A stretch of DNA of 64,000 nucleotides from Nitrosopumilus sp. (GCA_965219345.1 OZ244732.1:1408001-1472000); one strand, 5' to 3'; positions 22,634 through 44,860 are shown, numbered from the stretch's first letter. Notes: generated by a model from the letters alone, not told the origin. Numbers and translations: made by a program.

Positions 22634-23135
22634 GGTTCTGTGAAGTTATCGGGTGTTATTCCGCAGCCTTGTCTAATGAGGCATAAAAGTACAATGGGGC
22701 CTCGATCTGACATTCAACCTTCTTGCAAGTTCTCATACCATGATCCAGACCTTTCGGAATTTGGTTCTGTCGGGTTGTCGGGGGAGGGGGAGGGGGGACA
22801 GGTCAGGGCTGGTTTCTCCATTCATCCTTGTCCGAAGCCGTCATCTGTTTAGAAGATACATTTCTGCTTGGTGAAGGCAACATAGCTAATAACTTCTTCA
22901 AGTGAGACAGGGTTACAAGCACTGTAGGGCAGCAGATCCAGACCAATGGTCTTTGATGCCAGGAATCCCCGCTGCGGTTTTTCATCCAATGGAGATATCA
23001 TCACTGTACTGTGTGGCAGTAGTAGTAGCAGCAGCAGCGAAGGCCAATGCATTATGATACCAAAGACAATGGCTACGCGGCCGGCATCTCTTTTGATTCA
23101 TAGTGACGGATTTTTACAAAAGAAAAAAGAAAGGC
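22634..23135 (+). repeat. IS6 end plus decayed exported-protein ORF; diverged copy at 40345-40835
   Basis: Co-linear similarity from GGTTCTGTG through GACGGATTTTTACAAAA...AGAAAGGCTAG. Confidence 0.85.
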
Positions 23136-24478
23136 TAGCTGCAGGTTGCAGTCGTAGTTATGGTCTGTCTCAGCTGACCTGTAAAGTCTTGACTGATGTC
23201 ACCAATTTGAACCTGCAGATAGTAGAAAGTAACAAAGGGAGGTTTCAAATTACTTACAACAATAACGTCTGTTTCAGACATTGGGGTTCTGTCCACGTAT
23301 AAAGTGTTTGTAATACTAGAGTGCCTTGTCTGCCCTACACCCATGATTGGCTCATCATTACTGTTCATCCAGTCCGTTGCAGATATGTCCACATCAACAG
23401 CGGAATTGCCACTATTGTTTATTGTAAGTGCCTTTGCATCCGAAGTGTCGCCGTATGCCAGACTGCCAAAGTCCAGATCACCGGTTACGCTGGCCGAGCA
23501 TACGGGAGCATCGGCGTTGGAGGCATCCAGCGTGACGTCAATTGTTTTTGATGCAATCTCGTTTAGGGACCCTACGATAGTGCCGTTTGCAGCAACGGTA
23601 CCGTAAGGCAGACTGACAGTCGTATCGTATGCAAAGGTGTCATCACTAAACACGCCTCTGATGACATAATTTCTAGTACCATTTTCCAAGGTTACGGGAG
23701 TTATGATTGATCCGCCAGATGTGAAAAAAGGAAGGTCATACCCAACTGTAAAACTGCCCTGAAAGTCGGAAATGGCGGGAAGCGGAAAGAAGAAGTCACC
23801 GAAGACGTCACTAACAGTTTCAAGACCCCCCAGGTCATCACGGTCAAGCACGACTACGCCAGAACCGTTGGAGAACTTTGTAAAGTCATCCCTGAACGTT
23901 ACGGATGGCTTTTCACCTACCGTAATCTCCACGGGTATGGTCTTGGTTGCCCCGGTAGTAGTACAGGTCGCATTCCCGGCATTACCGGTATAGGTGAACT
24001 CTTTTATGACAATGTCAAACGTATCGATGCCCGTATATGTAGCACCGGGGATGTAGTCAAATTCGGCAAGCATTGTGGGGTCGTGGCCAAAGTCATTCGT
24101 ATTACAGGTTATGGCAAGTTCGGGACTATTGCCATCACTGTAATCGTATGGTTTTATGGGATCTCCAGATGCCACAAGGCTGCCGCCCTCTTCAGTGGTC
24201 AGGGGGTCGGGAAATACGGCAATCCAGGGATTTCCAGTGACATTGTAACCAATAGCATTATGAAGTATAGGAGTAAAGTTAGGTCGTTCTGTTACCAGGG
24301 ACAGATCATGGGCAATTGTACCATATCCGACATCGTATCTCAGTGTTGGAACAATATCCACAGTACCATCAGTGTCTGACTGGCCATACGCATAGTAGCC
24401 TCCTGCAGTCATTGTTGCTGTTATCGCTACCGCCATCAGGATCGCCGCAACAGTGCCGTCTCTCTCTTTTAGTGCCAA
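23135..24478 (-). CDS. Secreted surface-protein family, paralog 1
   Basis: Signal peptide; FDYIPGATYTGIDTF cadherin/Ig-like strand; C-terminal Cys-bounded beta-rich domain (LDFGSL...TTATC). Confidence 0.85.
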   Translation of the reverse strand: MALKERDGTVAAILMAVAITATMTAGGYYAYGQSDTDGTVDIVPTLRYDVGYGTIAHDLSLVTERPNFTPILHNAIGYNVTGNPWIAVFPDPLTTEEGGSLVASGDPIKPYDYSDGNSPELAITCNTNDFGHDPTMLAEFDYIPGATYTGIDTFDIVIKEFTYTGNAGNATCTTTGATKTIPVEITVGEKPSVTFRDDFTKFSNGSGVVVLDRDDLGGLETVSDVFGDFFFPLPAISDFQGSFTVGYDLPFFTSGGSIITPVTLENGTRNYVIRGVFSDDTFAYDTTVSLPYGTVAANGTIVGSLNEIASKTIDVTLDASNADAPVCSASVTGDLDFGSLAYGDTSDAKALTINNSGNSAVDVDISATDWMNSNDEPIMGVGQTRHSSITNTLYVDRTPMSETDVIVVSNLKPPFVTFYYLQVQIGDISQDFTGQLRQTITTTATCS

Positions 24479-24479
24479 T

Positions 24480-24517
24480 GACTGTATACGGGGGGGGGGG
24501 TTAAATAACTATATCGA
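24480..24517 (-). promoter_or_regulatory. Putative promoter with C11 tract, paralog 1
   Basis: Minus strand TCGATATAG-TTATTTAA-C11-GTATACAGTCA-TTG. Confidence 0.65.
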
Positions 24518-24748
24518 AGGATACTGTTAACAATTCGTGACATGGGCATGACTGCACCCCCAGGGGATCATCTTTGTGTCAAAGGTACAATCATGAGGCC
24601 ATCTGATCCCTCATTGACGGGTATTTCCTTCATGCATTCATCATGGCTGCCCTTCCTGCAAAACCAGCATATGCGTGATTCCATCATCATTCTTCTGACG
24701 GGCAAAACCCCACTGTAAACTTATCTGGAGGACTCTGGTATGTACTAG

Positions 24749-24926
24749 CAATGTCTGACATTGCAGACAACAAGTTCCAGATCCATCATTTCAAATATTT
24801 TGAGAACCTTTTCCCTGCTAACAATGTCTGACATTGCAGACAACAAGTTCCAGATCCATCATTTCAAATATTTTGAGAACCTTTTCCCTGCTAACAATGT
24901 CTGACATTGCAGACAACAAGTTCCAG
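24749..24926 (+). repeat. 73-bp tandem repeat, ~2.4 units, at the IS6 transposase break point
   Basis: CAATGTCTGACATTGCAGACAACAAGTTCCAG at 24749, 24822 and 24895 with identical intervening sequence. Confidence 0.9.
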
Positions 24927-25324
24927 CATAATGCCGATAACCTGCTGAGAATGGCAAAACAGCAGTCTGGCAAGTCACCTAGAAACTTCATTACAGACGG
25001 GCTGCCAGCTTATGCCAAATCCTCAAAAAAAGTATTTGGGAAAGACACGAATCATGTAAAGCACATACATCTCGCTGGGAAGCGTGACCGTGACAATAAC
25101 AACAAGATGGAGAGATTGAACGGGAAAATCAGGGATCATGAGAAGGTATTAAGGGGATTGAAAAAGATGGATACGGCAATCCTTGACGGCATGAGGGTGT
25201 ATTATAACTTCACAAAAGAACACTCTGCACTTGGCGGTAGAACGCCAGCAGAGCCTCAATGATAAGGTTGAGGGTTCTAACAAATGGAAGACGATAATCC
25301 AAAACGCCTCACTGAGCAGAACTA
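24895..25324 (+). pseudogene. IS6-family transposase, C-terminal remnant
   Basis: ITDGLPAY, NNKMERLNG, YYNF..H.ALGGRTPA; homologous to 42626-43252. Confidence 0.85.
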
Positions 25325-25594
25325 TTCAGTAGATATTATGCGTATTGCCTTTGATTTTGCGTCATGAACTCGTTTATGCATTTTCCTTAAGTTGGAATTG
25401 TATGTATCACAGCAGTCAGGATTGCAATCTATTCCGGTTGTTTTGAAACCAGCTGCTTCAAGACCCAACGAAAGCCCGCCAGCTCCGGAGTAGATGTCAA
25501 GTGCTACATATTTTGAACGTTTTGTTGGTCGTAATATTTTTTCTATTTCAAAAGGGTAATTTTTCTTGAGTGCATGTATGTCAGGAAGTTTCAT
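25322..25594 (-). pseudogene. C5-cytosine DNA methyltransferase, N-terminal fragment
   Basis: ALDIYSGAGGLSLGLEAAGF is motif I; the ORF is truncated. Confidence 0.75.
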
Positions 25595-26000
25595 TACATA
25601 TCATCAAAAATATATTTGCTAAAAACCTTCTGCAGTGGCAGGTTGCAGTCGGACATGATTTTGGATCCCAAAAGAGATGTTATGGCTTGCAATGTTTACA
25701 GTACCTGCTCTTGTTTTTTGCCAAAAACTTCCTTTCACTTTTTCTTATGATGTAATACTTGCTGTTCTTTGTGTCTCTCATCTGCGATGGCATCGTTAAG
25801 GAACTGCATGATGGGTTGTGAATTATGTCCTTTTGATTCAGAGTTGTCGTGTTTGTCACATCCGAATGCAGTTGTGTACGCAGTACAAGAACATCTTTTG
25901 ATGCTTTGAATTTCTTGATTTTGTTTGAGGGAATTCTTTCCAATACTGGCGTGTGCCATGTCATTGAAATTAAATGTTTATTTAGTGCGTTCGTAGTGCA

Positions 26001-27098
26001 TGTTAAATTTTGATGAACCGATCACCAACCTCTATTGTACGGAAATTATGTCGCGCGCCAAGAGTCCGGCGTACTGCCCAAGAGTATTTTACACTACACA
26101 AGTCCAGGCACCCCATGCCAATACGCCTGACCGACAAGGCCATCCGATACGCCGTCAGGCAGCTGGAGAAGGGCAAAGACACCAAGACGGTCGCAGAAGA
26201 GATCAACGTCACCCAGAGGCATGTGCAGCGGCTGTGGGCCGAATTCAACAGGACCGGTTCGATCCACGTCCAGCAGCCTGCAGGACGGCCGGCAGATCTC
26301 CCACCGCCCGACGAGGAAACCAATATGGTATTAGACGTTCACGGACGCAAGCCGGAGGGTGTGCTACGGACAGCCAAGAGGCTTCGGAAGGAGGGACACG
26401 ATATAAGCTACTCCCGCGTATACCAGATAATGAAGTCCAACGGCCTGGTCATCGACTCCCCGGCAAAGTCGAGGAAGCGCAAGTGGGTCAGGTACGAGCG
26501 CCTGTACTCGAATGCCATGTGGCATACTGACTGGCATGTGATGAAGGATCCGCGCATGAAGGATCTGAACCTGATCACGTATCTTGATGATGCCTCCAGG
26601 TGCGTTACGGGCGCGGCATTGTTCAGGGAGGCCACCTCAGAGAACGCGGTGGCGGTGCTCCGGCAGGCAGTCGGCAGGTTCGACGTGCCGGCGACCATCC
26701 TGTCCGACAACGGCTCGTGCTTCGTCGGCAGGGGCGGCCGCAAGAGGCAGACAGGCACCTGGACTCCGACCCTCTTTGAGAACGAGCTGCTGGACCACAA
26801 CATAGGGCTGATCAATTCAAGACCGTATCACCCGCAGACCAACGGAAAACTGGAGAGGTTCCACAGGAGCATCGAGGAGGAAATATGGCACTATGACGGG
26901 CTGGACGACTATGTCGAGTACTACAACACGGACAGGCTGCACTTTTCACTGGACATCGACAACTACGAGACGCCGCTGATGGCGTTCCGCAACAAGAGGG
27001 CTACCGACGAGATAAGACAGCAGAATTCCAGATGGATGGAGGCAGATATCAATGACTGACGACCCAGACAGGGGGCGACATGATTTTCATATATTACA
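26001..27098 (+). mobile_element. IS481-family insertion sequence
   Basis: TGT...ACA ends; GC-rich; single transposase ORF; abuts an IS6 N-terminal gene; no clear TSD. Confidence 0.8.
26010..27059 (+). CDS. IS481-family transposase (true start possibly ~26115)
   Basis: MWHTDW, LDDASR, LSDNGSCF, HPQTNGKLERFH (rve core). Confidence 0.92.
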   Translation: MMNRSPTSIVRKLCRAPRVRRTAQEYFTLHKSRHPMPIRLTDKAIRYAVRQLEKGKDTKTVAEEINVTQRHVQRLWAEFNRTGSIHVQQPAGRPADLPPPDEETNMVLDVHGRKPEGVLRTAKRLRKEGHDISYSRVYQIMKSNGLVIDSPAKSRKRKWVRYERLYSNAMWHTDWHVMKDPRMKDLNLITYLDDASRCVTGAALFREATSENAVAVLRQAVGRFDVPATILSDNGSCFVGRGGRKRQTGTWTPTLFENELLDHNIGLINSRPYHPQTNGKLERFHRSIEEEIWHYDGLDDYVEYYNTDRLHFSLDIDNYETPLMAFRNKRATDEIRQQNSRWMEADIND

Positions 27099-27473
27099 GC
27101 AATTATTGCATGTGTAACGTTGTCTTTTGGTTCCATTCTTTAGTTTTCTGAATCCTTGTTTTACTATCTCAGTTGAATAACATTTTGAACAAATCTTAGG
27201 ACGTTCTGTTTTCTCTATCTTGCTTTGTGATGTAATGGAATCCATTAAGATAATACAAGATTTGATATGCTTGCAATGTTTATCATCTAACTTTCTTAAT
27301 CTAAAATGAAAATCCTTGCACTCACAAGTCCATACATCGACTTTTGGTAGTTTTCTAATGTTGTAAGTTGTATCTGAGTTTTGTGATTCCACAGCATAAT
27401 GATTCTTTGTAATTTTTCTAATTGAATTAGTTTTTGAGAAAATTTGTGTTGCTTTTAGTTTTCTTTGATTCAT
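27099..27473 (-). pseudogene. IS6-type transposase N-terminus (SWIM and Zn-ribbon), cut by IS481
   Basis: WTCECKDF...CKH SWIM; CSKC...VKQG.R...QRYTCNNC Zn ribbon. Confidence 0.7.
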
Positions 27474-27546
27474 ACTACTAATAGTATTATAGTATTATTA
27501 ATAGTTATACTATAAGAAATAAATACTAATTATAATATTGATTAAC

Positions 27547-27684
27547 ATGGGTAAGAAATTAGTAACATCTGTTAAAATTGATGAAGATGTTTGGAAAGAA
27601 GCCAAAATCACAGCTATCAAACGAGGAACTACGGTAACAGATCTTTTGAATACGGCATTAGAAGAAGAATTAAAAAAACAGTGA
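27547..27684 (+). CDS. Small ribbon-helix-helix/CopG-like protein (45 aa)
   Basis: Manual translation MGKKLVTSVKIDEDVWKEAKITAIKRGTTVTDLLNTALEEELKKQ; divergent from the transposase. Confidence 0.7.
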   Translation: MGKKLVTSVKIDEDVWKEAKITAIKRGTTVTDLLNTALEEELKKQ

Positions 27685-27797
27685 ATAGATAACGTATAGT
27701 ACGGTACTTCTTTCAAAACACAAATTCGCCCTATTAAATTACAATAAACCTTATAAGTAACTTTTACTTCCATTAAAGTAATTGGTGATTTTCTTTA

Positions 27798-29003
27798 ATG
27801 TTTAGTAAGTCTGTTATAGATGAGTATAACGATCCATTATGGGACTCGAGTAAGTTTACTAAACCTAATGGAAAATTTGAAAGTAATGACCAAAACCAAC
27901 AAACATTTGTTCCCAATGTATTACCCCCTTCAATTTCATACGATAATGAATTAGTAATGTTACTTGCACAAGCCGAAAGAAAAGTTGGTGAGTTAAAAGG
28001 AAAAGGCAGTGAATTAAAAAACCCACATATTTTAATTCGAGCATATCTAAAACGTGAAGCAGTATTAAGTTCAAAAATTGAAGGAACCTTAGCTTCTCTA
28101 GAAGATTTGAACAAACATGAAGCTATCGGCAATATTGGACAAAATGTAGCTGAAAACTTGAGATTACGAGAAGTTGTGAATTATGTTAGAGCATTAGAAG
28201 AATCTTTAAAAAAAATAGAAGAACCAAATCAACTTGTTGATTTGAATATTATAAAAACAGCTCATAAAACATTAATGAGTGGAGTTAGAGATCAAGATAA
28301 AAATCCTGGAGAATTTAGGACAACACAAAATTGGATCGTAAAAACTCAAGGAACCAAAAAGACAATTATCTATACACCACCGTCTCCAAAAAAAATATTA
28401 GATTTACTTACAAATCTTGAAAAATTTTTCCAAACAGATCATAATCAAATTTCTACATTAATTCAATGTGCTATCATCCATTATCAATTTGAAGCTATAC
28501 ATCCGTTCCTTGATGGGAATGGGAGAATCGGAAGATTATTTCTTCCATTGATATTATACAAAAAAGGTTTGTTGCCAGAACCATTATTATATTTAAGTGC
28601 TTATTTTGATAAATATCAAGAAGAATATTATAATGGATTGTTAGCAGTGAGTCAAAAAGGCAAATGGAGGGAATGGATGAAATTTTTCCTTAAAGCTTTT
28701 GCAGAACAAGCTGATGAAACAATAAAAAATATTCAAAAATTAGTAGATTTGGAAAAAAAATATAAAAATATACTTAGACAAAAAAATACCAGTAGTAATG
28801 TTGTTCTTTTAATGGAACATATGTTTTCAAATCCATACGTTACAATTCCACAAGCTAGTAAATTTCTTGAAGTTACATATCCATCAGCAAAAAATGCAGT
28901 TATGACATTAGTAGATGTAGGAATAATACAACAAACAGACATATTCTATAATAGTAAAGTTTTTCTTGCAGAAGAAATAGAAGCAACTCTGAATATAGAT
29001 TAA
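27798..29003 (+). CDS. Fic-family protein (Fic_N, Fic, C-terminal HTH)
   Basis: EAVLSSKIEGT inhibitory motif and HPFLDGNGRIGR. Confidence 0.93.
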   Translation: MFSKSVIDEYNDPLWDSSKFTKPNGKFESNDQNQQTFVPNVLPPSISYDNELVMLLAQAERKVGELKGKGSELKNPHILIRAYLKREAVLSSKIEGTLASLEDLNKHEAIGNIGQNVAENLRLREVVNYVRALEESLKKIEEPNQLVDLNIIKTAHKTLMSGVRDQDKNPGEFRTTQNWIVKTQGTKKTIIYTPPSPKKILDLLTNLEKFFQTDHNQISTLIQCAIIHYQFEAIHPFLDGNGRIGRLFLPLILYKKGLLPEPLLYLSAYFDKYQEEYYNGLLAVSQKGKWREWMKFFLKAFAEQADETIKNIQKLVDLEKKYKNILRQKNTSSNVVLLMEHMFSNPYVTIPQASKFLEVTYPSAKNAVMTLVDVGIIQQTDIFYNSKVFLAEEIEATLNID

Positions 29004-29255
29004 AAAGGATTTTAAAAATTCTTGATAATTAGAGATTTTATTAATTTCTTCATGTCCCGAATTGAACAGTAATCTCAAATGACCCGAGTTTTGAACAGTG
29101 TACATAATCTCAGCACCCGAAGATTACACAGAACCATATTCCAACACTTTTAATAACTTCCCACAATTCCTGCAGCAGTCAATTCGCACAATTTATGACA
29201 TATGATGTTATTTTATAATTCTTTAACTAATATTCATAAAAAAAGATAAGGGTAT

Positions 29256-29825
29256 CTATCTTAATAGATCAGATATTCTCTCTTTTACGTCGTCTTTGTT
29301 GCCTGTTCTATCATCTAGTTTGTTTATTGCTTGACCATCTTCAATTTTGTAAATAGATTTTGAGATAGATATTGGGTTGTATGTGTCCCCAAATATACTA
29401 TGGATGTCTTTTCCAAGTAATAAAATTACTTGTTCTCCCACAGTTAGATCTACTGACTCTGTTCTAGAAATTATTCCATCTAAATCACCACCACCCACTA
29501 CAAATGTGATAGTTTGAGAATTTATATCACCTTTGATGACATCATCTACTTTAACAGTAAATTCGGTGTAAATTCTAGGTGGTTTATCATTATGGATAAT
29601 CTTCCAGTATGGTTTGGCTTCTAGTATAGTTCCTTCAACAATAAGAGATGCTCTGTTGATCTCTTGCTCTTCTGTTAAAGCCTCTTCTAAAGTACTAACA
29701 CCAATAGATATACCTGGGTTATCAACTGCAAATTGTTTCCCTATTGTATCAGCATCTGGTTGACTAAATACAAGAACAGGAATTACCACAAGTACCAAAA
29801 GAGGTAGTAATAGTTTTTTATTCAT
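29256..29825 (-). CDS. Exported hypothetical protein
   Basis: Signal peptide MNKKLLLPLLVLVV; ASLIVEGTI...IYTEFTVKVDDVIKG OB-like pattern. Confidence 0.7.
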   Translation of the reverse strand: MNKKLLLPLLVLVVIPVLVFSQPDADTIGKQFAVDNPGISIGVSTLEEALTEEQEINRASLIVEGTILEAKPYWKIIHNDKPPRIYTEFTVKVDDVIKGDINSQTITFVVGGGDLDGIISRTESVDLTVGEQVILLLGKDIHSIFGDTYNPISISKSIYKIEDGQAINKLDDRTGNKDDVKERISDLLR

Positions 29826-30042
29826 CTTGATACATCCCCCTAATTGTTGCTTTATCATGGCTGTTCAATGTTCTATCTACAGTATTGACTGAAATTGAAG
29901 CTATCATAGGTGAGCTTGATGTTGTTGTATGATCATGGATACCAGCAACATGTCCGATTTCATGGATGGCAACAGTTTCATAGTCATAAGACATCCATCC
30001 TTGAGATACATTTACATCTCTAAAATCTTTAGCACTGTTAAA
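29818..30042 (-). pseudogene. Matrixin/M10-like zinc metalloprotease C-terminus, truncated by an IS6 end
   Basis: Manual translation ...YDYETVAIHEIGHVAGIHDH...SPM...LNSHDKATIRGMY; the 5' end stops at the IR at 30043. Confidence 0.7.
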
Positions 30043-30221
30043 GGTTCTGTGTAATCTTCGGGTGCTGAATCTTTAGGCTAATAATATTCTTATATATGGT
30101 ATATAATATTATGATGTTACAAGCTTGTTGTGTGTGTTCTGTCGGTTTACCCGATTAGAATAAGCATACCTCCTGTTGGACTGGGCACAGTTCGTCGGAA
30201 AGCAGGAGGCAATTTATTTTT

Positions 30222-30293
30222 GGTTGTATGGTCTAGTGGTATGATGTATGGATTCCGACCCATACGACGTGGGTTCAATTCCCACTACCATCA
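30222..30293 (+). tRNA. tRNA-like gene or pseudo-tRNA (probably Gly-TCC; atypical 8-nt anticodon loop)
   Basis: GGTTGTA-TG-GTCTAGTGGTATGAT-G-TATGG-ATTCCGAC-CCATA-CGAC-GTGGG-TTCAATT-CCCAC-TACCATC-A; good D and T arms, one acceptor-stem mismatch. Confidence 0.65.
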
Positions 30294-30301
30294 CAATTCT
30301 A

Positions 30302-30420
30302 TTAGACTGAATTTTGCTTGTGCAATGAAGCGTTTTCTATAATTGTTTTCCAACGATTTATTCCGTCAACCGTGATTTTAGCTGATTCTGCTGGAGTTTG
30401 TCCTTTGAGTGCATCGAGAT
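30302..30420 (-). pseudogene. IS6 transposase extreme C-terminus
   Basis: ALKGQTPAESAKITVDGINRWKTIIENASL matches the end of 42626-43252. Confidence 0.8.
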
Positions 30421-31597
30421 TGCAGAGATCAACGAATCCTTGTATTCGATTATAGGAACTGCTGGCAAAGTAGGAGGAAAATCTACAATGTCGTATCTGA
30501 TATACATGGCAATTAGGATTTTGGAGATGCATAGAATTCTAAAATCAACAGGTTCGTTGTACCTGCACTGCGACACCACAATGAGCCATTATCTCAAGCT
30601 GGTACTGGATTCAATATTTGGTGGGGAATCATTCCGAAACGACATAACGTGGAAACGAACCAGTTCTCACAATGACAGCAAGAGATACGGGAAGATTTCT
30701 GACCAGATACTGTTTTACTCCAAGACCAGAGACTACACATGGAATGATGTCTATCTTCCATACTCGGAGGAATACAAAAAGAAAAATTTCAAGAACAAGG
30801 ATGATCGTGGATATTATAGCCATGAACAATTAACTGCTAAAAGTCTGTCAGGCGGAGGGTACGAGTATGAATACAAGGGGCATATGAGAATCTGGAAGAG
30901 AGCGTTAGAATCTATGTTGGAGTTAGAAAAAAATGATATGTTGCATTACCCAAAGAAAAAAGGTGGACTTCCACGTTATAAGATATATCTTGATGATGCA
31001 AAGGGACTGCCTTTGTAGAACATCTGGACTGACATATCTGGTGTCAAGGGTTCAGAAAGGCTTGGCCACCATACGCAAAAACCACTTGCACTTTTGGAAC
31101 GAATCATAAAAGCCAGCAGTTACACTGGTGGAATGGTGTTTGACCCCTTTTGTGGCTGTGCCACAGATTGTCTTGCAGCAGAGAAACAGGGCAGAAAATG
31201 GATAGGGTGCGATATATCAGAAAGAGCCTATTCGTTGATTGAACAAAGACTCAAGAAAGATGCAGGAATTGCCAAGTTCATTACTAGCACAGGACAAGTT
31301 ATACAAAGAACGGATATACCAAAAAGAAAGGGTAGGCGATCCAAGGATGTCAAGCATACGTTATACGGAATCCAACATGGGTACTGCAACGGTTGTAAAT
31401 ACCATTATCTATTCAAGGATTTGGAGGTAGATCACATCATACCAAAAGCAAAGGGTGGTCAGGATGATGACAAAAACCTTCAACTACTTTGTGGTAACTG
31501 CAACAGACGGAAGGGCGGAAAGCTTACCATGACTGAACTTAATGCCGTGCTGGTTGCAGAGGGCATGAAGTTCGGTAAGGGTAAGACAGAACTATGA
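30420..31597 (+). pseudogene. N6/N4 DNA methyltransferase-HNH endonuclease fusion, 5'-truncated with an internal stop
   Basis: LKSTGSLYLHCD, TQKP..LLERII, DPFCG, and C-terminal CxxC...VDHIIPKAKGG..D..NLQLLCxxCN; TAG at 31016-31018. Confidence 0.85.
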
Positions 31598-34586: not shown

Positions 34587-35966
34587 CTAGATACTGCAGG
34601 TTGCAGTCGTAGTTATGGTCTGCGTCAGCTGACCTGTAAAGTCTTGACTGATGTTATCAATTTGAACCTGCAGATATTGGAAAGCAAAATTGCCAGGTGG
34701 GAAAACATCTACCGCCCTACCGTCTGTTTCAGACATTGGGGTTCTGTTCTCGTATACATGGTTCGAACTATTAATACCGTACCTTGTCTGCCCTACATCC
34801 ATGATTGGCTCATCATTACTGTTCATCCAGTCAGTTGCAGATATGTCCACATAAATATAGGCAGTGCCAGTATTCTCAATTACCATTAACTTTGCATCCG
34901 AAGTATCTCCATATGCCAGACTGCCAAAGTCCAGATCACCGGATACGCTGGCCGAGCATACGGGAGCATCGGCGCCAGAGGCATCCAGCGTGACGTTAAT
35001 CATCTTTCTTGCAATCTCGTTTTGGGACTCTACGATGGCGCCATCTACAACGGTACCGTAGGGCAGGCCGACAGTCATATTGTATAAAAAGAAGTCGTCA
35101 CTAAACACGCCCCTGATGTTGTACTCGGTGCCGTATAATAAAAATGATAGATTATCCAGATTCCCATCCTGATCCTCGTTTAATGTTATGGGCAGTCCGC
35201 CATCTGTCGTCTCAGGAAGGTCAAGTCCGACTCTTGCATTACTTACAAAGGGCTCAAAGGAGGGAAATGGAAAGAGGAAATTCGGAGGTTGCTTACCATA
35301 CAGGTCTTCAGTTTCATAAAGCACGACTACGCCGGAACTGTTGGAGGACTTTGTAAAGTCATCCCTGAACGTTACGGATGGCTTTTCACCTACCGTAATC
35401 TCCACGGGTATGGTCTTGGTTGCCCCGGTAGTAGTACAGGTCGCATTCCCGGCATTACCGGTATAGGTGAACTCTTTTATGACAATGTCAAACGTATCGA
35501 TGCCCGTATATGTGGCACCGGGGATGTAGTCAAATTCGGCAAGCATTGTGGGGTCGTGGCCAAAGTCATTCGTATTACAGGTTATGGCAAGTCTAGTGCC
35601 ATTATTAAAATCGTACGGTTTTATGGGATCTCCGGATGCCACAAGACTGCCGCCCTCTTCAGTGGTCAGGGGGTCGGGAAACACGGCAATCCAGGGACTT
35701 CCAGTGACATTATAACCAATAGCATTATGAACAAGTCTAGATGAGTCTGGTAACGAGGATGGTGTGCTTAACAGTACTCTTGTCAGTTCCAAGTCATGGG
35801 CAATCGTACCATATCCGACATCGTATCTCAGTGTTGGAACAATATCCACAGTACCATCAGTGTCTGACTGGCCATACGCATAGTAGCCTCCTGCAGTCAT
35901 TGTTGCTGTTATCGCTACCGCCATCAGGATCGCCGCAACAGTGCCGTCTCTCTTCTTTAGTGCCAA
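34587..35966 (-). CDS. Secreted surface-protein family, paralog 2
   Basis: Homologous to 23135-24478. Confidence 0.85.
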   Translation of the reverse strand: MALKKRDGTVAAILMAVAITATMTAGGYYAYGQSDTDGTVDIVPTLRYDVGYGTIAHDLELTRVLLSTPSSLPDSSRLVHNAIGYNVTGSPWIAVFPDPLTTEEGGSLVASGDPIKPYDFNNGTRLAITCNTNDFGHDPTMLAEFDYIPGATYTGIDTFDIVIKEFTYTGNAGNATCTTTGATKTIPVEITVGEKPSVTFRDDFTKSSNSSGVVVLYETEDLYGKQPPNFLFPFPSFEPFVSNARVGLDLPETTDGGLPITLNEDQDGNLDNLSFLLYGTEYNIRGVFSDDFFLYNMTVGLPYGTVVDGAIVESQNEIARKMINVTLDASGADAPVCSASVSGDLDFGSLAYGDTSDAKLMVIENTGTAYIYVDISATDWMNSNDEPIMDVGQTRYGINSSNHVYENRTPMSETDGRAVDVFPPGNFAFQYLQVQIDNISQDFTGQLTQTITTTATCSI

Positions 35967-36007
35967 TGACTGTATACGGGGGGGGGGGGGGTAAATAACT
36001 ATATCGA
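35967..36007 (-). promoter_or_regulatory. Putative promoter with C14 tract, paralog 2
   Basis: G14 at 35978-35991 followed by TAAATAACTATATCG. Confidence 0.65.
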
Positions 36008-36104
36008 AGGGTGGTTCTGTTGCATCTTGGTGACCTAAAATAAAGGAACTGGTTATCGGTAGATAATTCTACTTGGAGACGGTGTTTGAGAGGTGGTGTA
36101 GTTT

Positions 36105-36747: not shown

Positions 36748-36789
36748 ATCAGTGTTAGTTCGATCTCAGTTCTATGTTTTCAAAACAAG

Positions 36790-37254: not shown

Positions 37255-37538
37255 TTAAAAAAGACATGCCTTCCAGTATTGTTCCCTCAAACGCAAAATC
37301 TACATTTCCTTTTTCCAAGTCTTCTTTAAATTGACTGATCTGTTGCATCTGCTTTTTTGTAAAACAGAATGGTGAAAATTGTGTGGTTTGCATGATAACT
37401 GAGATGCTAAGTTGATATTAAAAGTTTTACTATCCATATATGACCACATAATGAATAAAATTTGTCATTTTCTCTTTTGATAAGATTTCAAGCCAATATG
37501 ACTGATGTAATCATGTATTACATTCCTTTTTTACTGTA

Positions 37539-39061
37539 TCAGAATATCTTGACAGGCATCGGATTATCTAAGTTAATGTGTGGATGGATTTTGTCAACAA
37601 GTAATGCCACAGCGTATTTGAGACAGCGATCGGCATCATCTTTTGTTACTTGCTTCCCATTATGGTAGAACTTGTTACGCTTTCTTTTCAGATCAATTAA
37701 AAGATCCTAAGAATCTTCATCAATTTTATCTTGAAGACTAAGAACTTCCAAGACATAGTCAATCGTCCATTGGGTGGGATTGTTTAGTTTGGATAAGCGC
37801 TCATGATCAATATCTTTCTGGGAGAGTAACGTGTGCCAAAGATCAGAGTAGTGTCTTTCTATCACACTCCAACCTAGGATAAAAGATGGAGCAAACTCTG
37901 AGTTGACAAGATGAGTCAGTCCATCATTGAGCAATCTCATGTCTTCTGATAATTTTTCATGTACAAGTAATTTTTCAGTGTTTGACAGAATTTTCTGCAT
38001 GGTCTCTAATTTCATCTCGGTTTTTGTAACGAACCTGTTGTGTTTGAAATTAAAGGAGTCCTCAATGAGATGTGCTCGTCTAGTTTCAGAATTCCATTGC
38101 ATGTCAGTTATAGTCAAATTTTGTTTGTCATAATTGGCCATAACCAATTCATGCTCACGAACAGCATGCAGAGAAAATCCATAAAATGCCCAAATGACAT
38201 TATCAGGTTTAGAATTTTTAATGCATCTTCTTTACTTCTGCTTTCAACAAAGATAAACCCATCCTTGTTGACGATGATTTGATTATTGCCAATCATTCTG
38301 TCAAATACTTTAGAATTAATCAAACGATTGAATGTGTTGTGGACCAATTCCCCTATACTACGCTTTTGTTCTGCACCTATTACAATTGGAGGAAACAAAT
38401 GCACTCCAAATCCCGCATATCTGTAATTTGCAAGTGATGATGGTTGTTGCAATATTGATGTTCTATCTTGTTTGCCCTTGGCTTCTTGTTTGATTTTTTG
38501 AATTGTCTTGTTAATTTCTTGTATGTGATCAATCTCTCCAATATTTCCTGCATGAATCCCGGTCCAGGTATCTTCAAGTGCCATCCCAATTAATGCATGA
38601 TGATCTCTTCTTTGTGGCATAAAGGCATCGCTCTTGATCATCTCAATAAATTTGGAAATCTCTGAGGCCATTTTCTCCCCCAATGTATTGAATTGCTCAT
38701 ATTCTGCTGGCAGTTTCTGCTTGGTTTTTCGTATCCATCTTTTATCTTCCAGTATTGTAACCACTTTGGAATAAAATTCATGTCGTTTGTATGGTCCATT
38801 TACTGTGATTTCCTTGTCCGGCCTGTCGTTAAAATTAGATTGTATTATTAGTTGGTAATCCGGATCAGCAATCCAAAAAATTTCAATCTGGCATGGGTTT
38901 AAAAAATTATTTGTGTTGTTCACACCTTTTTTTTCATCGGCAGATAATTTTTCGTATTCTTCTCGAAAATAGTCAATATAGTTTAGATACCATTGTGTTA
39001 ACGATTCTCGTTTACTGGTTTGTTCCAACATACGGCTTAGATATGTTGGATATATTAACAC
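37539..39061 (-). pseudogene. HEPN-domain protein with a frameshift and a premature stop
   Basis: ORFs 38114-39061 and 37707-38147 overlap; reading past the TAG at 37707 gives DLKRKRNKFYHNG (RxxxxH). Confidence 0.65.
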
Positions 39062-39182
39062 AGATAATTTCTTACATTGATCGAAACGAGGAAAAATCTC
39101 CCATTAACTTAAATTCCGTTGAATCATGAAAATAGTGAAGAATTTCATAGTAAGGATTTTCTAATCTGAAACCTAAACATGC

Positions 39183-39662
39183 ATGATGGAAGTCATTCTG
39201 ATGATTGGAATTCAAGGTAGTGGAAAGACAATGCTTACCCAAATTGCATTTCCAAACCATCGCCATATATCCTTAGATAAAATCAAAGAATTTTCATCAA
39301 GGAAAAAACATGATCTGTTAAAACAATACACAATAAGTAATGCACAACTGTTGCATGATCAACGTTTGAGCAAAGAAAGAAAAATTGAATATGTTATAAT
39401 AGATAACTGCCTAAAAAATGGCAAAAATGTTGTTGTTGATGATACTAATGTTACAAAACATATACGTAAACACCATATTCATCTTGCTCAAAAATATGAT
39501 GCTACAGTAAACGCAATATTTTTTCAGAACATCCAAAAAGCGTATGAGCAAAACAGAAATCGCAAGAAACCATTGGATAAAAAAATATTGGATAAATTTC
39601 ATAGTGATTTAGAAATTCCCCACATGGAAGAAGGATTTGGATTTATCCAAGTCATGTGTTGA
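39183..39662 (+). CDS. AAA_33 / polynucleotide-kinase-like P-loop protein
   Basis: MIGIQGSGKT, VVVDDTN, and P..EEGF C-terminus. Confidence 0.85.
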   Translation: MMEVILMIGIQGSGKTMLTQIAFPNHRHISLDKIKEFSSRKKHDLLKQYTISNAQLLHDQRLSKERKIEYVIIDNCLKNGKNVVVDDTNVTKHIRKHHIHLAQKYDATVNAIFFQNIQKAYEQNRNRKKPLDKKILDKFHSDLEIPHMEEGFGFIQVMC

Positions 39663-39794
39663 TATTCTAACGTAGCAATACAACACCTGAATGTAGTACT
39701 AATTTAAAATGATAGAAAATGATATCAATGTATAACAACAGAATGATCTAAAATATTTATAATAAAAACCAATGTATGAATTCACCCATCCCTT

Positions 39795-40067
39795 ATATCA
39801 GTCGGGTAACCTCCTCTTCTGCCACGCTCTTGCCGTGATTCTGCCATGTTAGGACACAGCTTACAAAATCTTCAAGGCGCTTTATGGCCTTGCTGCCGCC
39901 CTTGGTCTGCCGCTTATCTTCTGGAACACCACTAGATAACGCAGTGCCCTCTCCGATGCATTGTTAGTCGGCTCCATCCCCAGATACCCCACAAACGTGT
40001 ACAGGTTCTCTGCGGCGTTCTCAAGGGTCGTGCCAAATCCGATACCGAGATTCTTGTATTCCCACAT
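39795..40067 (-). pseudogene. IS66-family transposase C-terminal remnant
   Basis: LYTFV...MEPTNNASERALR.LVV..KISG. Confidence 0.8.
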
Positions 40068-40114
40068 GGTCAGTAGAACCTCAGCGACTCCACGTCCCTA
40101 AGAAAGGAAAGGCG

Positions 40115-40327
40115 TCAGACATGCCTTAGTTCCAACTCGCATCTTCTTATGTTCCTTTCAAGCTCTGATTTTTTGCGTTTAAGATGCTTTAGCTCCAGAG
40201 TTACCGCCTTTTTGCGCGATTGTGGATGCTTGATGTTGCCGCAAATGGCATCCGCTCTTTTTCCATTCTCTTGATATCTATGATAATAGTATTCGTTGCC
40301 ACAGACATTCATAATTATGATTGGCAT
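40115..40327 (-). CDS. Small basic hypothetical protein, copy 2
   Basis: Duplicate of 34224-34436. Confidence 0.55.
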   Translation of the reverse strand: MPIIIMNVCGNEYYYHRYQENGKRADAICGNIKHPQSRKKAVTLELKHLKRKKSELERNIRRCELELRHV

Positions 40328-40887
40328 TATATGTTATCTCAAAGGGTTCTGTGTAACCTTCGGGTGTTATTCTGTAGCCTTGTTTAGTGAGACATAAAAG
40401 CGCAACGGGGACTCGGTCTGACATTCAACCTTCTTGCAAGTTCTCATACTATGATCTAGACCTTTCGGAATTTGGTTCTGTCAGGTTGTCGAGGGGGACA
40501 AGTCAGGACTGGTTTCTCCATTCATCCTTGTCCAAAGCCGTCATCTGTTTAGAAGATACATTCCCACTTGGTGAAGGCAACATAGCTAGCTTCTTCAAGT
40601 GGGATAGAGTCACAAGCATTGCAAGTCAGCAATCCATGCCAATAGTCTTTGATGCCGGGAATCCCCGCTGCGGCCTTCATCCAATGGAAAATCACCACTG
40701 TACCGTGTGGCAGCAGCAGCAGCAACAGCAGCAGTAGCGAAGGCCGATACATAATGATGCCAGAGACAATGGCTACGCAGCCGGCATCCCTTTTAATTCA
40801 CAATGACGGATTTTTACAAAATAAATAAGAAAGGCTAGGGACAGAACACAGATACAGTCACAGTCTGTGGATGACAGCCAATGAGTG

Positions 40888-42270
40888 CTACTGCAGCAGA
40901 TAAGGACAGGACACAGATATAGTCACAGTCTGTGTAATCTGACCTGTAAAGTCTGGACTGATGTCGCCACCAATTTGAACTTGCAGCCAGTTGACATTTT
41001 CCCCGTCAGGAGGGATAAAAGCGGTAAACACTCTGTCTGTTTCAGATATTAAGTGTATATTCTCGTATGCAATGCGCCGGTCATCAGAGTACCTTGTCTG
41101 CCCCACATCCATGATTGGGGTACCATGACTGTCCAGCCAGTCAGTGCCAGATATTGACATACCACCATAAGTAGTGCCAGTATTCTTGGTTGCAAGTCTC
41201 TTTTTATCCGAAATATCGCCATATGCCAGACTGCCAAAGTCCAGATCAGCGGATACCCTGACTGAGCATATAGGAACATCAGTAGCGCCAGAGGCATCCA
41301 GCGTGACGTCAATTGTTTTTGATGCAATCTCGTTTAGGGACCCTACGATAGTGCCGTTTGCAGCAACGGTACCGTAAGGCAGACTGGCAGTCGCATTGTA
41401 TGAAAAAGAGTCATTACTAAACACGCCTCTGATGACATAATATTTGGTACCATTTTCCAAGGTTACGGGAGTTATGACTGATCCGTCATCTGTCGTCTCA
41501 GGAAGGTCAAGTCCGACTATTGCATTACTTACAGGGAGATCAAAGGAGGGAAATGGAACCGCGAAGTCGAAGAAGCCATCACCGGGAGGTTGCAAACCAA
41601 TCAGGTCATCATCACGGTCAAGCACGACTACGCCGGAACTGTTGGAGAACTTTGTAAAGTCATCCCTGAACGTTACGGATGGCTTTTCACCTACCGTAAT
41701 CTCCACGGGTATGGTCTTGGTTGCCCCGGTAGTAGTACAGGTCGCATTCCCGGCATTACCGGTATAGGTGAACTCTTTTATGACAATGTCAAACGTATCG
41801 ATGCCCGTATATGTAGCACCGGGGATGTAGTCAAATTCGGCAAGCATTGTGGGGTCGTGGCCAAAGTCATCCGTAGCACAGGTTATGGCAGGTACCTGAT
41901 TGCCAAGATCATGATAGTCGTATGGTAATATGGGATCTCCGGATGCCACAAGGCTGCCGCCCTCTTCAGTGGTCAGGGGGTCGGGAAACACGGCAATCCA
42001 GGGATTGTCACTGCCGGGTTGTCTAAGGTTGATGGCATTATGATATGTGGGATGAACACGATCCTCTGTTACCAGGGACAGATCATGGGCAATCGTACCA
42101 TATCCGACATCGTATCTCAGTGTTGGAAGAATCTCCACGTCAGCATCATTGACTGACTGGCCATACGCATGGCCTGCAGTCACTGCTACTGCTGCTACTG
42201 CTGCTACCACTGTTATCGCTGCAGCCATCAGGATCGCCGCAACAGTGCCGTCCCTCTTCTTTAGTGTCAC
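40888..42270 (-). CDS. Secreted surface-protein family, paralog 3
   Basis: Homologous to paralogs 1, 2 and 4; most divergent C-terminal domain. Confidence 0.85.
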   Translation of the reverse strand: MTLKKRDGTVAAILMAAAITVVAAVAAVAVTAGHAYGQSVNDADVEILPTLRYDVGYGTIAHDLSLVTEDRVHPTYHNAINLRQPGSDNPWIAVFPDPLTTEEGGSLVASGDPILPYDYHDLGNQVPAITCATDDFGHDPTMLAEFDYIPGATYTGIDTFDIVIKEFTYTGNAGNATCTTTGATKTIPVEITVGEKPSVTFRDDFTKFSNSSGVVVLDRDDDLIGLQPPGDGFFDFAVPFPSFDLPVSNAIVGLDLPETTDDGSVITPVTLENGTKYYVIRGVFSNDSFSYNATASLPYGTVAANGTIVGSLNEIASKTIDVTLDASGATDVPICSVRVSADLDFGSLAYGDISDKKRLATKNTGTTYGGMSISGTDWLDSHGTPIMDVGQTRYSDDRRIAYENIHLISETDRVFTAFIPPDGENVNWLQVQIGGDISPDFTGQITQTVTISVSCPYLLQ

Positions 42271-42311
42271 TGACTGTATACGGGGGGGGGGGGGGGTAAA
42301 TAACTATATCG
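42271..42311 (-). promoter_or_regulatory. Putative promoter with C15 tract, paralog 3
   Basis: G15 at 42282-42296 followed by TAAATAACTATATCG. Confidence 0.65.
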
Positions 42312-42317
42312 GAGGGT

Positions 42318-43300
42318 GGTTCTGTGTAATCTTCGGGACTTGAGAAATATGGAAAAATGATTTTTTTGATCAATTTTTAGATTTGTCTTACATCATAAAG
42401 ATCAAATGTAATATTTTTAGTTCCTAAAACAGCTTGAAACACAATGTTATCGTCTACAGCTATTTGCATTACATTGTCTGTTAGAAAACCACCGCCTAAT
42501 TCTTGTACTTCTAAATTGATTTGTCTAAAATGAGCAATCATATTGTTTATGTTGCCTTGTATAACTGGATGTAGAGGAGAAAAGAGAGCATTGTATCTTT
42601 CCGTAAATCTGTCAACCATTATGAGATGATGGGAATTGATGTATCTTTTAAAACCATATACAACTGGGTATCAAAGTGCTCTGAAATGACCTCGATCTAT
42701 CTCAATGGCATAGTTCCAAGAACTAAAGGTCTAATGTTCAGGGCAGATGAGGTATGGATTAAAGTAAATGGCAAACAATGTTATCTGTTTGCTGGTATGG
42801 ATGATGATTCTAGATTTTGGCTAGCTTCTGATGTTGCAGATAACAAGTTTCATCACAATGCAGACAGCCTCTTAGAATTCACAAAAAGACAGGCTGGAAA
42901 ATCACCTAGAAATTTTGTTACTGACGGTCTACCAGCATACATGAAATCATCAAAGAAAATATTTGGAAAAAAGACAAATCACATCAGACATATTCACATC
43001 CAAAAAGATGTGAACAACAACAAGATGGAGCGTTTAAACGGAGAGATCAGAGACCGAGAGAAAGCCTTTAGGGGTCTCAAAAGAATAGACACGCCAGTAA
43101 TTGAAGGCATGAAAGTGTATTACAATTTCACAAAAAAACATGGAGCTTTGAAAGGCAAGACACCAGCTCAAGCCTCACTAATTGAAGTGGACGGTAAGAA
43201 CAAATGGAAGACGATCATACAAAATGCCTCACTAAACAAGGCTACTGAATGAATCCTTAGAAGATCCATATTTCTCAAGTCCCGAAGATTACACAGAACC
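42318..43300 (+). mobile_element. Internally deleted IS6-family element with 36-bp perfect terminal IRs
   Basis: GGTTCTGTGTAATCTTCGGGACTTGAGAAATATGGA at 42318-42353 and its reverse complement at 43265-43300. Confidence 0.9.
42626..43252 (+). CDS. IS6-family DDE transposase (5'-truncated)
   Basis: TIYNWV, ADEVWIKVNG..YLF..MD, VTDGLPAY, NNKMERLN. Confidence 0.88.
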   Translation: MMGIDVSFKTIYNWVSKCSEMTSIYLNGIVPRTKGLMFRADEVWIKVNGKQCYLFAGMDDDSRFWLASDVADNKFHHNADSLLEFTKRQAGKSPRNFVTDGLPAYMKSSKKIFGKKTNHIRHIHIQKDVNNNKMERLNGEIRDREKAFRGLKRIDTPVIEGMKVYYNFTKKHGALKGKTPAQASLIEVDGKNKWKTIIQNASLNKATE

Positions 43301-43441
43301 TCTCAAAGACCGGCCGAGGTCTCATTGATGCCTCCCTCTGTTTCTTCCATATCAAATACAAGACCCGACAGTGTTGCAAACACCCCATGTCTTACACGTT
43401 CTGACAGTCCGAACCTCCTACGGTGTGATTTCAGGCTAGGG

Positions 43442-44821
43442 CTAGATACTGCAGGTTGCAGTCGTAGTTATGGTCTGCGTCAGCTGACCTGTAAAGGTAT
43501 TAGAGATCTCACCAATTTTAACCTGCAGATATTGGAAAAATAAATTAAAGCCAGGTGACAAATTATCTGCAAAATCAGCGTCAATTTCAGACATTGGGAT
43601 TTTGTCCTCGTATGCAAAGTTTACAATATGAGAGTACCTTGTCTGCCCTACATCCATGATTGGCTCATCATTACTGTTCATCCAGTCAGTTGCAGATACG
43701 TCCACATCAACAACACCGGTGCCAGTATTGTTTATTTGAAGTGGCTTTGCATCCGAAGTATCGCCATATGCCAGGCTGCCAAAGTCCAGATCACCGGATA
43801 CGCTGGCCGAGCATACTGGAACATCGGCGCCAGAGGCATCCAGCGTGACGTTAATCATCTTTCTTGCAATCTCGTTTTGGGACTCTACGATGACGCCATC
43901 TACAACGGTACCGTAGGGCAGGCCGACAGTCATATTGTATAAAAAGAAGTCGTTACTAAACACGCCCCTGATGTTGTACTCGGTGCCATATAATGCAAAT
44001 GATGTATTATCCAGATTCCCATCCTGATCCGCGTTTAATGTTATGGGCAGTCCGCTATCTGTCGTCTCAGGAAGGTCAAGTCCGACTCTTGCATTACTTA
44101 CAAAGGGCTCAAAGGAGGGAAATGGAAAGGAGAAATTCGGAGGTTGCTTACCATACAGGTCTTCAATTTTATAAAGCACGACTACGCCGGAACTGTTGGA
44201 GAACTTTGTAAAGTCATCCCTGAACGTTACGGATGGCTTTTCACCTACCGTAATATCTACGGGTATGGTTCTAGTTTCTCCGGTAACAAGACAGGCCGCA
44301 GATCTGGCATCACCGGTATAGGTGAACTCTTTTATGACAATGTCAAACGTATCGGTACCGGTATACGTGGCACCAGGGATGTAGTCAAACTCTGCAAGCA
44401 TTGTGGGGTCGTGGCCAAAGTCGTTCGTATCACAGGTTATGGCAAGTCTAGTGCCATTATTAAAATCGTACGGTCTCATAGGTTCTCCGGATGCCACAAG
44501 ACTGCCGCCCTGTATGGTATTCAAAGAGTCAGGAAACACGGCAATCCAGGGACTTCCAGTGACATTATAACCAATAGCATTATGAACAAGTCTAGATTGG
44601 TCTGGTAACGTGGATGGTGTGCTTAACAGTACTCTTGTCAGTTCCAAGTCATGGGCAATCGTACCATATTCGACATCGTATCTCAGCGTTGGAACAACCA
44701 CCACATCGGCATCGGTGCCTGACTGGCCATACGCATAGTAGCCTCCTGCAGTCATTGTTGCTGTTATCGCTACCGCCATCAGGATCGCCGCAACAGTGCC
44801 GTCTCTCTTCTTTAGTGTCAC
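43442..44821 (-). CDS. Secreted surface-protein family, paralog 4
   Basis: Closest to paralog 2; shares downstream 43301-43490 with 34446-34635. Confidence 0.85.
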   Translation of the reverse strand: MTLKKRDGTVAAILMAVAITATMTAGGYYAYGQSGTDADVVVVPTLRYDVEYGTIAHDLELTRVLLSTPSTLPDQSRLVHNAIGYNVTGSPWIAVFPDSLNTIQGGSLVASGEPMRPYDFNNGTRLAITCDTNDFGHDPTMLAEFDYIPGATYTGTDTFDIVIKEFTYTGDARSAACLVTGETRTIPVDITVGEKPSVTFRDDFTKFSNSSGVVVLYKIEDLYGKQPPNFSFPFPSFEPFVSNARVGLDLPETTDSGLPITLNADQDGNLDNTSFALYGTEYNIRGVFSNDFFLYNMTVGLPYGTVVDGVIVESQNEIARKMINVTLDASGADVPVCSASVSGDLDFGSLAYGDTSDAKPLQINNTGTGVVDVDVSATDWMNSNDEPIMDVGQTRYSHIVNFAYEDKIPMSEIDADFADNLSPGFNLFFQYLQVKIGEISNTFTGQLTQTITTTATCSI

Positions 44822-44860
44822 TGACTGTATACGGGGGGGGGGGGTAAATAACTATATCGA
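44822..44860 (-). promoter_or_regulatory. Putative promoter with C12 tract, paralog 4
   Basis: G12 at 44833-44844 followed by TAAATAACTATATCG. Confidence 0.65.

Follow-up and report, generated by a model that had tools for sequence, protein, structure and literature searches.

We analysed a stretch of 64,000 nucleotides (nt) from Nitrosopumilus sp. (the window, in which coordinates are counted from the first nucleotide) that carries a family of genes for putatively secreted proteins, each preceded by a long poly(C) tract. The genome is 1.91 Mb in size, comprises two contigs and has a GC content of 36%. Four family members lie in the window, all on the minus strand: W1 (23135–24478; 447 amino acids (aa), TTG start, secreted-protein-like N-terminus), W2 (34587–35966; 459 aa, TTG start), W3 (40888–42270; 460 aa, GTG start) and W4 (43442–44821; 459 aa, GTG start). 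A first-pass annotation, made from the DNA alone, had described four intact and co-oriented open reading frames (ORFs) here, and we find each of them uninterrupted. The W2–W4 proteins are 69–76% identical to W1, with a mean column identity of 79% across the four. All begin with (V/L)(T/A)LK(K/E)RDG, followed by a hydrophobic run and then AYG-QS. We read this N-terminal segment as a putative Sec-type signal peptide, a call made, like the other signal peptides mentioned below, by eye from the protein sequence rather than by a predictor.

The same arrangement precedes each of the four genes, consisting of CGATATAGTTATTTA, a poly(C) run, GTATACAGTCA and the TTG or GTG codon. The run is C11 in W1, C14 in W2, C15 in W3 and C12 in W4, in agreement with the shared upstream element and differing homopolymer of the first-pass annotation, and upstream similarity ends about 30 nt beyond it. 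In W1, the 11-nt spacer GTATACAGTCA (24479–24489) separates the start codon from the tract (24490–24500; G on the plus strand), and the conserved element GATATAGTTATTTA follows at 24502–24515. The tract and the GATATAGTTATTTA element occupy 35978–35991 and 35992–36005 in W2, 42282–42296 and 42297–42310 in W3, and 44833–44844 and 44845–44858 in W4, all on the minus strand. This 14-nt promoter motif occurs exactly four times in the window. Overlapping C9 matches number 21, compared to 0.09 expected, and none of 100 shuffled sequences reached that count. A fifth, shorter C9 run is found at 54273–54281, in a stretch of 50% GC with strong AT skew. The GC-rich stretches of the window (6001–8000 and 54001–56000) gave no Rfam hit and hence are not rRNA.

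The first-pass annotation placed four such genes in the window, which holds, and proposed a search for more copies. A tblastn search of the whole genome was positive, bringing the family to ten members rather than four. All ten are intact, full-length ORFs, each with its own promoter element and start codon. In nine of them, the interval from a TATA-like box to the start codon contains a pure tract of C11–C15; in the tenth (C1:1363062), the tract is interrupted and reads C5TC6T. The spacer between tract and start codon is 11 nt long in eight paralogs and 12 nt long in p1582k and p485k. These are the long forms of the family, with lengths of 737 and 834 aa, and contain a beta-propeller-like repeat region inserted as an extra domain of ~300 aa. 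Each of the ten copies has its own unique flanks; together they are scattered across 1.25 Mb of a 1.87-Mb contig, and they differ from one another at 6–25% of nucleotides. Coding GC is 46–50% in all ten, compared to 36% for the genome, which may reflect amino-acid composition or a foreign origin.

The position of the tracts relative to the promoter can be judged against the rest of the genome. Upstream of 760 ATG-start ORFs of at least 150 aa, TATA-like hexamers are concentrated at −29 (51 cases) and −28 (48 cases), over a background of ∼8, and their genome-wide range is −33 to −26 from the ATG. Because this peak lies 28–29 nt before start codons, leaderless or near-leaderless mRNAs look common in this organism. 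In a weaker form of this enrichment, a TATA-like hexamer at −31 to −27 is also more frequent for candidate GTG starts (6.2% versus 4.2%) and candidate TTG starts (7.2% versus 3.5%). In W1, TTATTT is the sole TATA-like hexamer of the conserved block and lies at −30 from the TTG, with 11 C residues after an extra A; W4 (12 residues) has it at −30 as well. The hexamer is at −32 in W2 (14 residues), p402k and p331k (11 residues after an extra CCA), and at −33 in W3 (15 residues) and p1250k. The box beside the tract reads TTATTTA, such that the tract fills the spacer from TATA to start, and the AT-richer stretch of 11–12 nt that follows is positioned where promoter melting would be expected to take place. 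The ATG preferred by gene callers, at codon 15, corresponds to V in p1582k; since it is not conserved there, GTG/TTG is the likelier start. Our literature searches returned nothing usable on transcription start sites (TSSs) or leaderless transcripts in Nitrosopumilus.

Runs of this length are far more numerous in the genome than the abundance of shorter runs would predict. Counts of C/G runs fall geometrically from 13354 at length 3 to 4 at length 8, and then rise again at lengths 10 to 15 (7, 10, 4, 2, 5 and 3, respectively). Runs of at least 10 nt thus total 31, compared to 0.11 expected from the decay of the shorter ones, an excess of ∼280-fold that forms a second mode at 10–15 nt.

The tracts also differ in length among samples. 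Here, lengths were taken from the assembled contigs of four public runs, covering 19.9 kb. Over this distance we saw indels at six sites, three of which are the three poly(C) tracts covered. Contigs of X1, X3 and X5 carry a W2 tract that lacks one base, and the W3 tract is two bases shorter (13 nt) in a contig of X6 that is anchored in the unique upstream flank. For W4, the tract is 11 nt in X3 (depth 122) and 12 nt, as in the reference, in X1 (depth 43), both contigs being anchored in unique flank. By comparison, only 1 of 18 A/T runs of 7–9 nt in the same 19.9 kb differs, versus all three poly(C) tracts, which vary by 1–2 nt among contigs. These data suggest that the tracts are hypermutable, with the caveat that long homopolymers are error-prone.

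The first-pass annotation had also described the coding sequences as shuffled in blocks, and a recombination test bears this out. Over 1293 ungapped, codon-aligned columns with 390 informative sites, the pairwise homoplasy index (PHI) is 0.335, compared to a permutation mean of 0.475 (z = −33), and none of 1000 permutations gave a value as low. The closest paralog changes along the gene: W3 is 100% identical first to p1250k, then to p331k, and then 99% identical to p402k. These paralogs, which share blocks of 100% identity, lie more than 1 Mb apart. Gene conversion has occurred among these paralogs in the past. A cassette-type system of antigenic variation (pilE/pilS or vlsE type), with a single expression site and silent, promoterless partial cassettes, does not describe this family, as all ten copies are full-length and have their own promoter, although the segmental gene conversion of such a system is present.

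Divergence is unevenly distributed along the protein. The ratio of nonsynonymous to synonymous substitution rates (dN/dS), given as sliding-window Nei–Gojobori values that are descriptive and uncorrected for recombination, is 0.1–0.3 at residues 88–177, ∼1 at residues 208–281 and 1.3–2.1 at residues 357–447. These values suggest that the C-terminal domain is under diversifying pressure. AlphaFold2, run on a 77-row alignment, was confident for residues ∼335–459 only (overall mean pLDDT, the predicted local distance difference test score, 54.5) and models this part as an Ig-like beta-sandwich with conserved Cys337 and Cys457. The variable positions of the modelled domain gather on four predicted strands and one loop. 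Entropy there is higher in the predicted strands than outside them (1.14 versus 0.81, P = 0.04), and the idea of variable surface loops is thus not supported in the form proposed. Foldseek matches of the model (TasA, Fim-type pilins and an archaeal bundling pilin) were weak, with a best E-value of 1.2e-4 and target TM-scores of 0.38–0.49, and we treat these matches as generic beta-sandwich likeness. Atlas look-alikes of the C-terminal part are unnamed archaeal proteins (score 0.95), and those of the N-terminal part yielded nothing informative (score 0.76).

Relatives of the family are confined to this same C-terminal part. We found no full-length relative in 150 other species of the genus or in 200 genomes of the family, and partial matches, covering the C-terminal ∼115–140 aa only, in 2 of the former and 6 of the latter. 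Scans of genome contigs and metagenome contigs likewise gave no relative. A search of 5.8 billion proteins returned solely proteins of this genome and one 99.1%-identical protein from another assembly. Among 1.84 billion representatives, 94 proteins matched at E ≤ 1e-3, all but three of them only over residues ∼300–458 and mostly at their own extreme C-terminus. On these searches, the family is species-restricted. The short forms had no significant Pfam or NCBIfam hit, including in the N-terminal ∼330 aa, and DUF4854 is the only family match of the long forms. The C-terminal beta-sandwich of ∼125 aa, with two conserved cysteines and one tryptophan, ends ∼90 otherwise unrelated secreted proteins and also stands alone in proteins of ∼145–165 aa; it matches no Pfam model. 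Its partner domains, among 40 proteins scanned, include GSDH, NHL, CBM96, Big and cadherin-like domains. It may serve Nitrosopumilaceae as a surface-anchoring or pilin-like module.

Long tracts are also found at genes unrelated to this family. Our placement of tracts relative to genes covers the nine family tracts and those described here, about 10 of the 31 tracts falling outside that list. Four genes for giant secreted proteins (4925, 5203, 1801 and 4746 aa), each with the N-terminus MERISFVILIS, have poly(G)11–14 upstream, at C1 92299–92312, 201598–201608, 908813–908826 and 1487802–1487814, outside the window. The layout is G11–G14, a variable (TG)4–5, aaaataaagag and then ATG, which puts the tract ∼20 nt before the start codon. 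The first 1000 aa of these proteins contain SWM_repeat and beta-propeller matches. Another tract, G15, is preceded by ctaaaata and separated by 11 nt from the ATG of an unrelated gene, which encodes a 215-aa membrane protein; this reproduces the tract–spacer–start geometry of the family. On its other side, a gene for a 2305-aa LVIVD-repeat protein lies 72 nt away. A C12 tract lies 55 nt upstream of an intact gene for a 445-aa N6_N4 methylase-HNH protein (C1 1233227–1234631), the homologue of a split gene in the window. Still other tracts are inside ORFs, namely those for an MBOAT acyltransferase, a sulfotransferase, two GT2 glycosyltransferases and a beta-propeller/CARDB protein. Seven poly(C) tracts fall within 57 kb at C1 ∼402000–460000, among them in-ORF tracts of MBOAT, sulfotransferase, GT2 and beta-propeller/CARDB genes. 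This region resembles an island of surface-glycan genes in which several tracts are candidates for frameshift switches.

At least one run of C11 or longer is present in 17 of 40 other genomes of the genus, and several of the larger genomes hold ten or more. In one sister genome (G195), two multi-copy secreted families account for 10 of 18 tracts, and their poly(G) either directly follows signal-peptide segments or sits between two copies of such a segment. A second sister genome (G209) has a family in which ATG is followed by 9–11 nt, poly(G) and a signal peptide, a classical frameshift layout. Across the secreted families of these two genomes, the feature directly before the poly(G) is the start codon, a signal peptide of lipobox-like type or a signal-peptide segment that is duplicated, and in the assemblies the upstream ATG is not in frame with some of the copies.

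Insertion sequences of the IS6 family are recurrent neighbours of these promoters. All ten family members have sequence resembling an IS6 end (ACAGAACC and variants) at a distance of 6–8 nt upstream of the promoter element, and W3 and p402k share an identical junction with a full IS6. Given these junctions, IS6-mediated spread of the promoter–gene module is a reasonable inference. IS6-end-like sequence is found on the far side of the giant-protein tracts as well, with IS6 transposase fragments at two of the four (908813 and 1487802). Genome-wide, 10 of 33 poly(C/G) runs of at least 9 nt are within 1 kb of an IS6 transposase match, compared to 1.3 expected and a maximum of 6 in 2000 trials, the copies not being independent of one another. 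One tract is inside an IS6-like transposase gene, at 1717690.

We lean towards the view that these genes make up an archaeal homopolymer contingency system, in which the tract sets the TATA-to-start spacer of leaderless genes and gene conversion acts among the paralogs. Replication slippage would add or drop C residues in the tract, and each residue gained or lost would shift the TATA-to-start distance by one base. The transcription start would thereby be displaced relative to the GTG or TTG codon, such that each paralog could be turned up, down or off on its own. Gene conversion would shuffle sequence blocks among the copies, and switching, shuffling and C-terminal diversification together would yield a stochastic, diversifying repertoire of surface proteins. 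The repertoire may form part of a genome-wide set of ∼31 tracts that takes in giant secreted proteins, surface-glycan enzymes and a DNA methylase, with the IS6 elements beside the promoters probably having spread the promoter–gene module. The first-pass annotation had proposed a switchable, diversifying repertoire of adhesins or receptors for the window genes, which we find supported in part. The C/G excess, the core-promoter placement and length differences of the tracts, gene conversion and the raised dN/dS all speak for its contingency aspect, while its expectation of variable surface loops is not borne out.

Several considerations weigh against the contingency reading. All tract lengths keep the TATA-like box at −30 to −33, inside the normal −33 to −26 range, and so the effect of slippage could be graded or nil. 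TTG, the start codon of W1 and W2, may initiate poorly on leaderless mRNA. The length differences come from assembled contigs, and long G/C homopolymers are error-prone in both sequencing and assembly; moreover, contigs break at the tracts because the flanking k-mers are common to the paralogs, and some lengths cannot be assigned to one locus. Finally, as our search found no family copy in 150 other species of the genus, it yielded no orthologous loci in which tract evolution could be compared.

A rival explanation is that the tracts are real and mutable but neutral, being passengers of a module copied by IS6 and gene conversion, with promoter output independent of length. Every observed length leaves the TATA-like box within its usual range, all ten ORFs are intact regardless of tract length, and the IS6 end beside every copy implies that the module is inherited as a unit, all of which fit such a scenario. 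Neutrality does not readily account for the ∼280-fold excess of runs of 10 nt or more and their bimodal length distribution, nor for the recurrence of tracts at the 5′ ends of unrelated secreted families and in genes for glycan enzymes and methylases, both in this genome and among sister species. The excess and this recurrence at unrelated genes are hard to explain without selection for long tracts, and we regard the neutral explanation as unlikely.

A different kind of switch, acting on translation, would result if initiation took place at a codon 8 nt upstream of the tract, which is ATG in some copies and ATA in six. The tract would then encode a proline run, and slippage would cause frameshifting. 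ATG is present at this position, within GATATGG, in 4 of 10 copies; in both long forms, the reading frame from this ATG runs on through the tract without a stop, and gene callers began p1582k at this very ATG and p485k at an in-frame ATG seven codons further upstream. The sister family with ATG, 9–11 nt, poly(G) and signal peptide provides a parallel. However, all four window copies have ATA instead of ATG at this position, W1 additionally contains an in-frame TAA, and the spacer of p331k holds two stops. No copy has a TATA-like hexamer 27–31 nt upstream of the codon in question, and only 5 of 10 copies are in frame, which is near the chance level. These observations make a translational switch improbable for this family, the layout being conceivable for the two long forms but failing in the four window copies.

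We attach similarly little weight to the possibility that the differences in tract length are sequencing or assembly noise around one fixed length per locus. The reliance on contigs rather than reads, and the breaking of contigs at tracts, lend it some plausibility. On the other hand, contigs of high depth and with unique flanks differ by sample, as seen for W4 (12 nt in X1, 11 nt in X3) and W3 (13 nt in X6), the paralogs span 11–15 nt inside a single assembly, and one copy has an interrupted tract. That the paralogs are themselves mis-assembled strain haplotypes, collapsed into one contig, is scarcely credible, as nothing beyond the general repeat risk of metagenome assemblies favours it, and it conflicts with the distinct unique flanks over 1.25 Mb, the 6–25% nucleotide differences, the extra ∼300-aa domain of two copies, and the reproduction of the unique-flank junctions by contigs from independent runs.

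Returning to the contingency reading, the additional tracts raise the broader possibility that Nitrosopumilus species run a multi-locus homopolymer 'phasome' over secreted families, giant adhesin-like proteins, surface-glycan enzymes and a DNA methylase. In the present genome this would operate through an archaeal-specific mechanism, slippage of TATA-to-start poly(C) in leaderless mRNAs. We offer this wider proposal tentatively, and would place it slightly short of an even chance.

The window family members lie in an island of ∼23.5 kb (21925–45406), between genes for an alpha/beta hydrolase (21166–21924) and ketol-acid reductoisomerase (45407–46405), the latter 91–96% identical to its counterparts in Nitrosopumilus relatives. 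Among 63 relatives with a full 2-kb flank, 25 have the hydrolase within 2 kb of the reductoisomerase, indicating that the ∼23.5-kb stretch is an insertion. An intact IS6-like element of 983 bp, bounded by perfect 36-bp terminal inverted repeats, occupies 42318–43300 on the plus strand and contains a transposase ORF (42626–43252, plus strand; 208 aa; DDE_Tnp_IS240, PF13610, E = 2.3e-15). The 20-nt end of this element occurs at nine places in the genome. A truncated IS6-family transposase gene (DDE_Tnp_IS240; 24834–25262, plus strand) lies upstream of W1 and divergent from it, and a 73-bp direct tandem duplication, 99% identical, is found at 24745–24890, between this gene and the W1 promoter. 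A solo IS6-like terminal inverted repeat, GGTTCTGTTGCATC (36013–36026, plus strand), abuts the W2 promoter, and further solo repeats are located at 29122, 30043, 31665 and 40345. A search for inverted-repeat pairs in 18000–50000 yielded a single pair, which is an IS6 end.

The first-pass annotation regarded the island as built by IS6, and the intact element, truncated transposase, solo ends and IS6-end-like sequence at promoters bear this out in part. The sequences flanking the intact element, CGGAGGGT and TCTCAAAG, are not a duplication, and hence the element lacks an 8-bp target-site duplication. This absence would be compatible with recombination between IS6 copies after transposition. The description of the remaining cargo as decayed holds in part. 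The N6_N4 DNA methylase and HNH gene is split into two ORFs (30398–31597, plus strand), a HAD gene survives as a C-terminal fragment, the transposase is truncated and a tRNA-like sequence is odd, but the Fic, rve integrase and AAA_33 genes look whole. The tRNA-like sequence (30222–30294) scores 48.6 bits with the Rfam tRNA model, and ARAGORN assigns it an anticodon of four bases (tccg) but no amino acid. An IS6 end (30043) is adjacent, and the sequence may be the remnant of an integration site.

Repeat-mediated phase variation is textbook bet-hedging of host-adapted bacteria, and several of the classical examples resemble the present family in part. In Mycoplasma hyorhinis, the vlp genes form a multi-copy surface family that recombines, each copy having its own promoter with poly(A) between −35 and −10. 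The window family is alike in its per-copy core-promoter homopolymer, its potential for independent switching and its recombination-driven diversity. It differs in that vlp uses sigma-70 and poly(A), whereas here there is an archaeal promoter of the TATA/transcription factor B (TFB) type, with poly(C) before a probably leaderless start; the proteins are unrelated, and switching here is presumed from the sequence. In Neisseria meningitidis, the length of promoter poly-G/C sets the transcription level of porA, opc and nadA, which encode outer-surface proteins. These genes share with the window family a G/C homopolymer inside the core promoter, yet they are mostly single-copy, have bacterial promoters and belong to a host-restricted pathogen, whereas here ten paralogs are found in a chemolithoautotrophic archaeon. 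In this archaeon the tract is flanked by a TATA-like box on one side and the start codon/TSS region on the other, not by the −35 and −10 hexamers of a sigma-70 promoter, and by analogy the window tracts would be work-alikes of the porA/opc/vlp type rather than members of it.

The Neisseria opa genes, in which a CTCTT pentamer in the signal-peptide coding region acts as a translational switch, are also multi-copy and mosaic, with recombination between copies, and each copy is switched by its own repeat. Their layout is nearer to that of the secreted families in the two sister genomes than to the promoter layout of the window. For the genome as a whole, a close comparison is the poly-G 'phasome' of Campylobacter jejuni and Helicobacter pylori. 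Shared features are a small AT-rich genome, ∼30 long G/C tracts far in excess of expectation, and gene classes that include glycosyltransferases, acyl- and sulfotransferases, surface proteins and a methylase of the restriction-modification (RM) type. The differences are that the present organism belongs to the Archaea and that many of its tracts are promoter-proximal rather than in-ORF.

The first-pass annotation knew of no comparable archaeal system, and literature searches, supplements aside, also turned up no described phase-variation, contingency-locus or homopolymer system for archaea, Thaumarchaeota or Nitrosopumilus. One paper does say that contingency loci are known in archaea, and the source given there is a 1987 paper on simple repeats. 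In Orsi et al. (2010), short poly(A/T) runs in coding genes are described for 18 archaeal genomes. A 2025 review (PMC11868660) treats it as an open question whether multi-locus phase-variable genomes are confined to pathogens and urges surveys across archaeal phylogenies. According to the same review (PMC11868660), phase-variable loci serve predominantly surface structures and RM systems, and the tract-bearing gene classes of the present genome appear to match these.

If the wider phasome proposal is correct, Archaea would have their first multi-locus contingency system, and its bearer would be an abundant marine nitrifier rather than a pathogen. Tracts that switch expression would also make the family a natural setting in which to study the control of archaeal transcription and leaderless translation by TATA-to-start spacing. 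Should the tracts indeed switch expression, it would follow that this strategy exists in Archaea and acts on TATA/leaderless promoters, and that it operates in globally important ammonia oxidisers, probably in answer to viruses, grazers or hosts.

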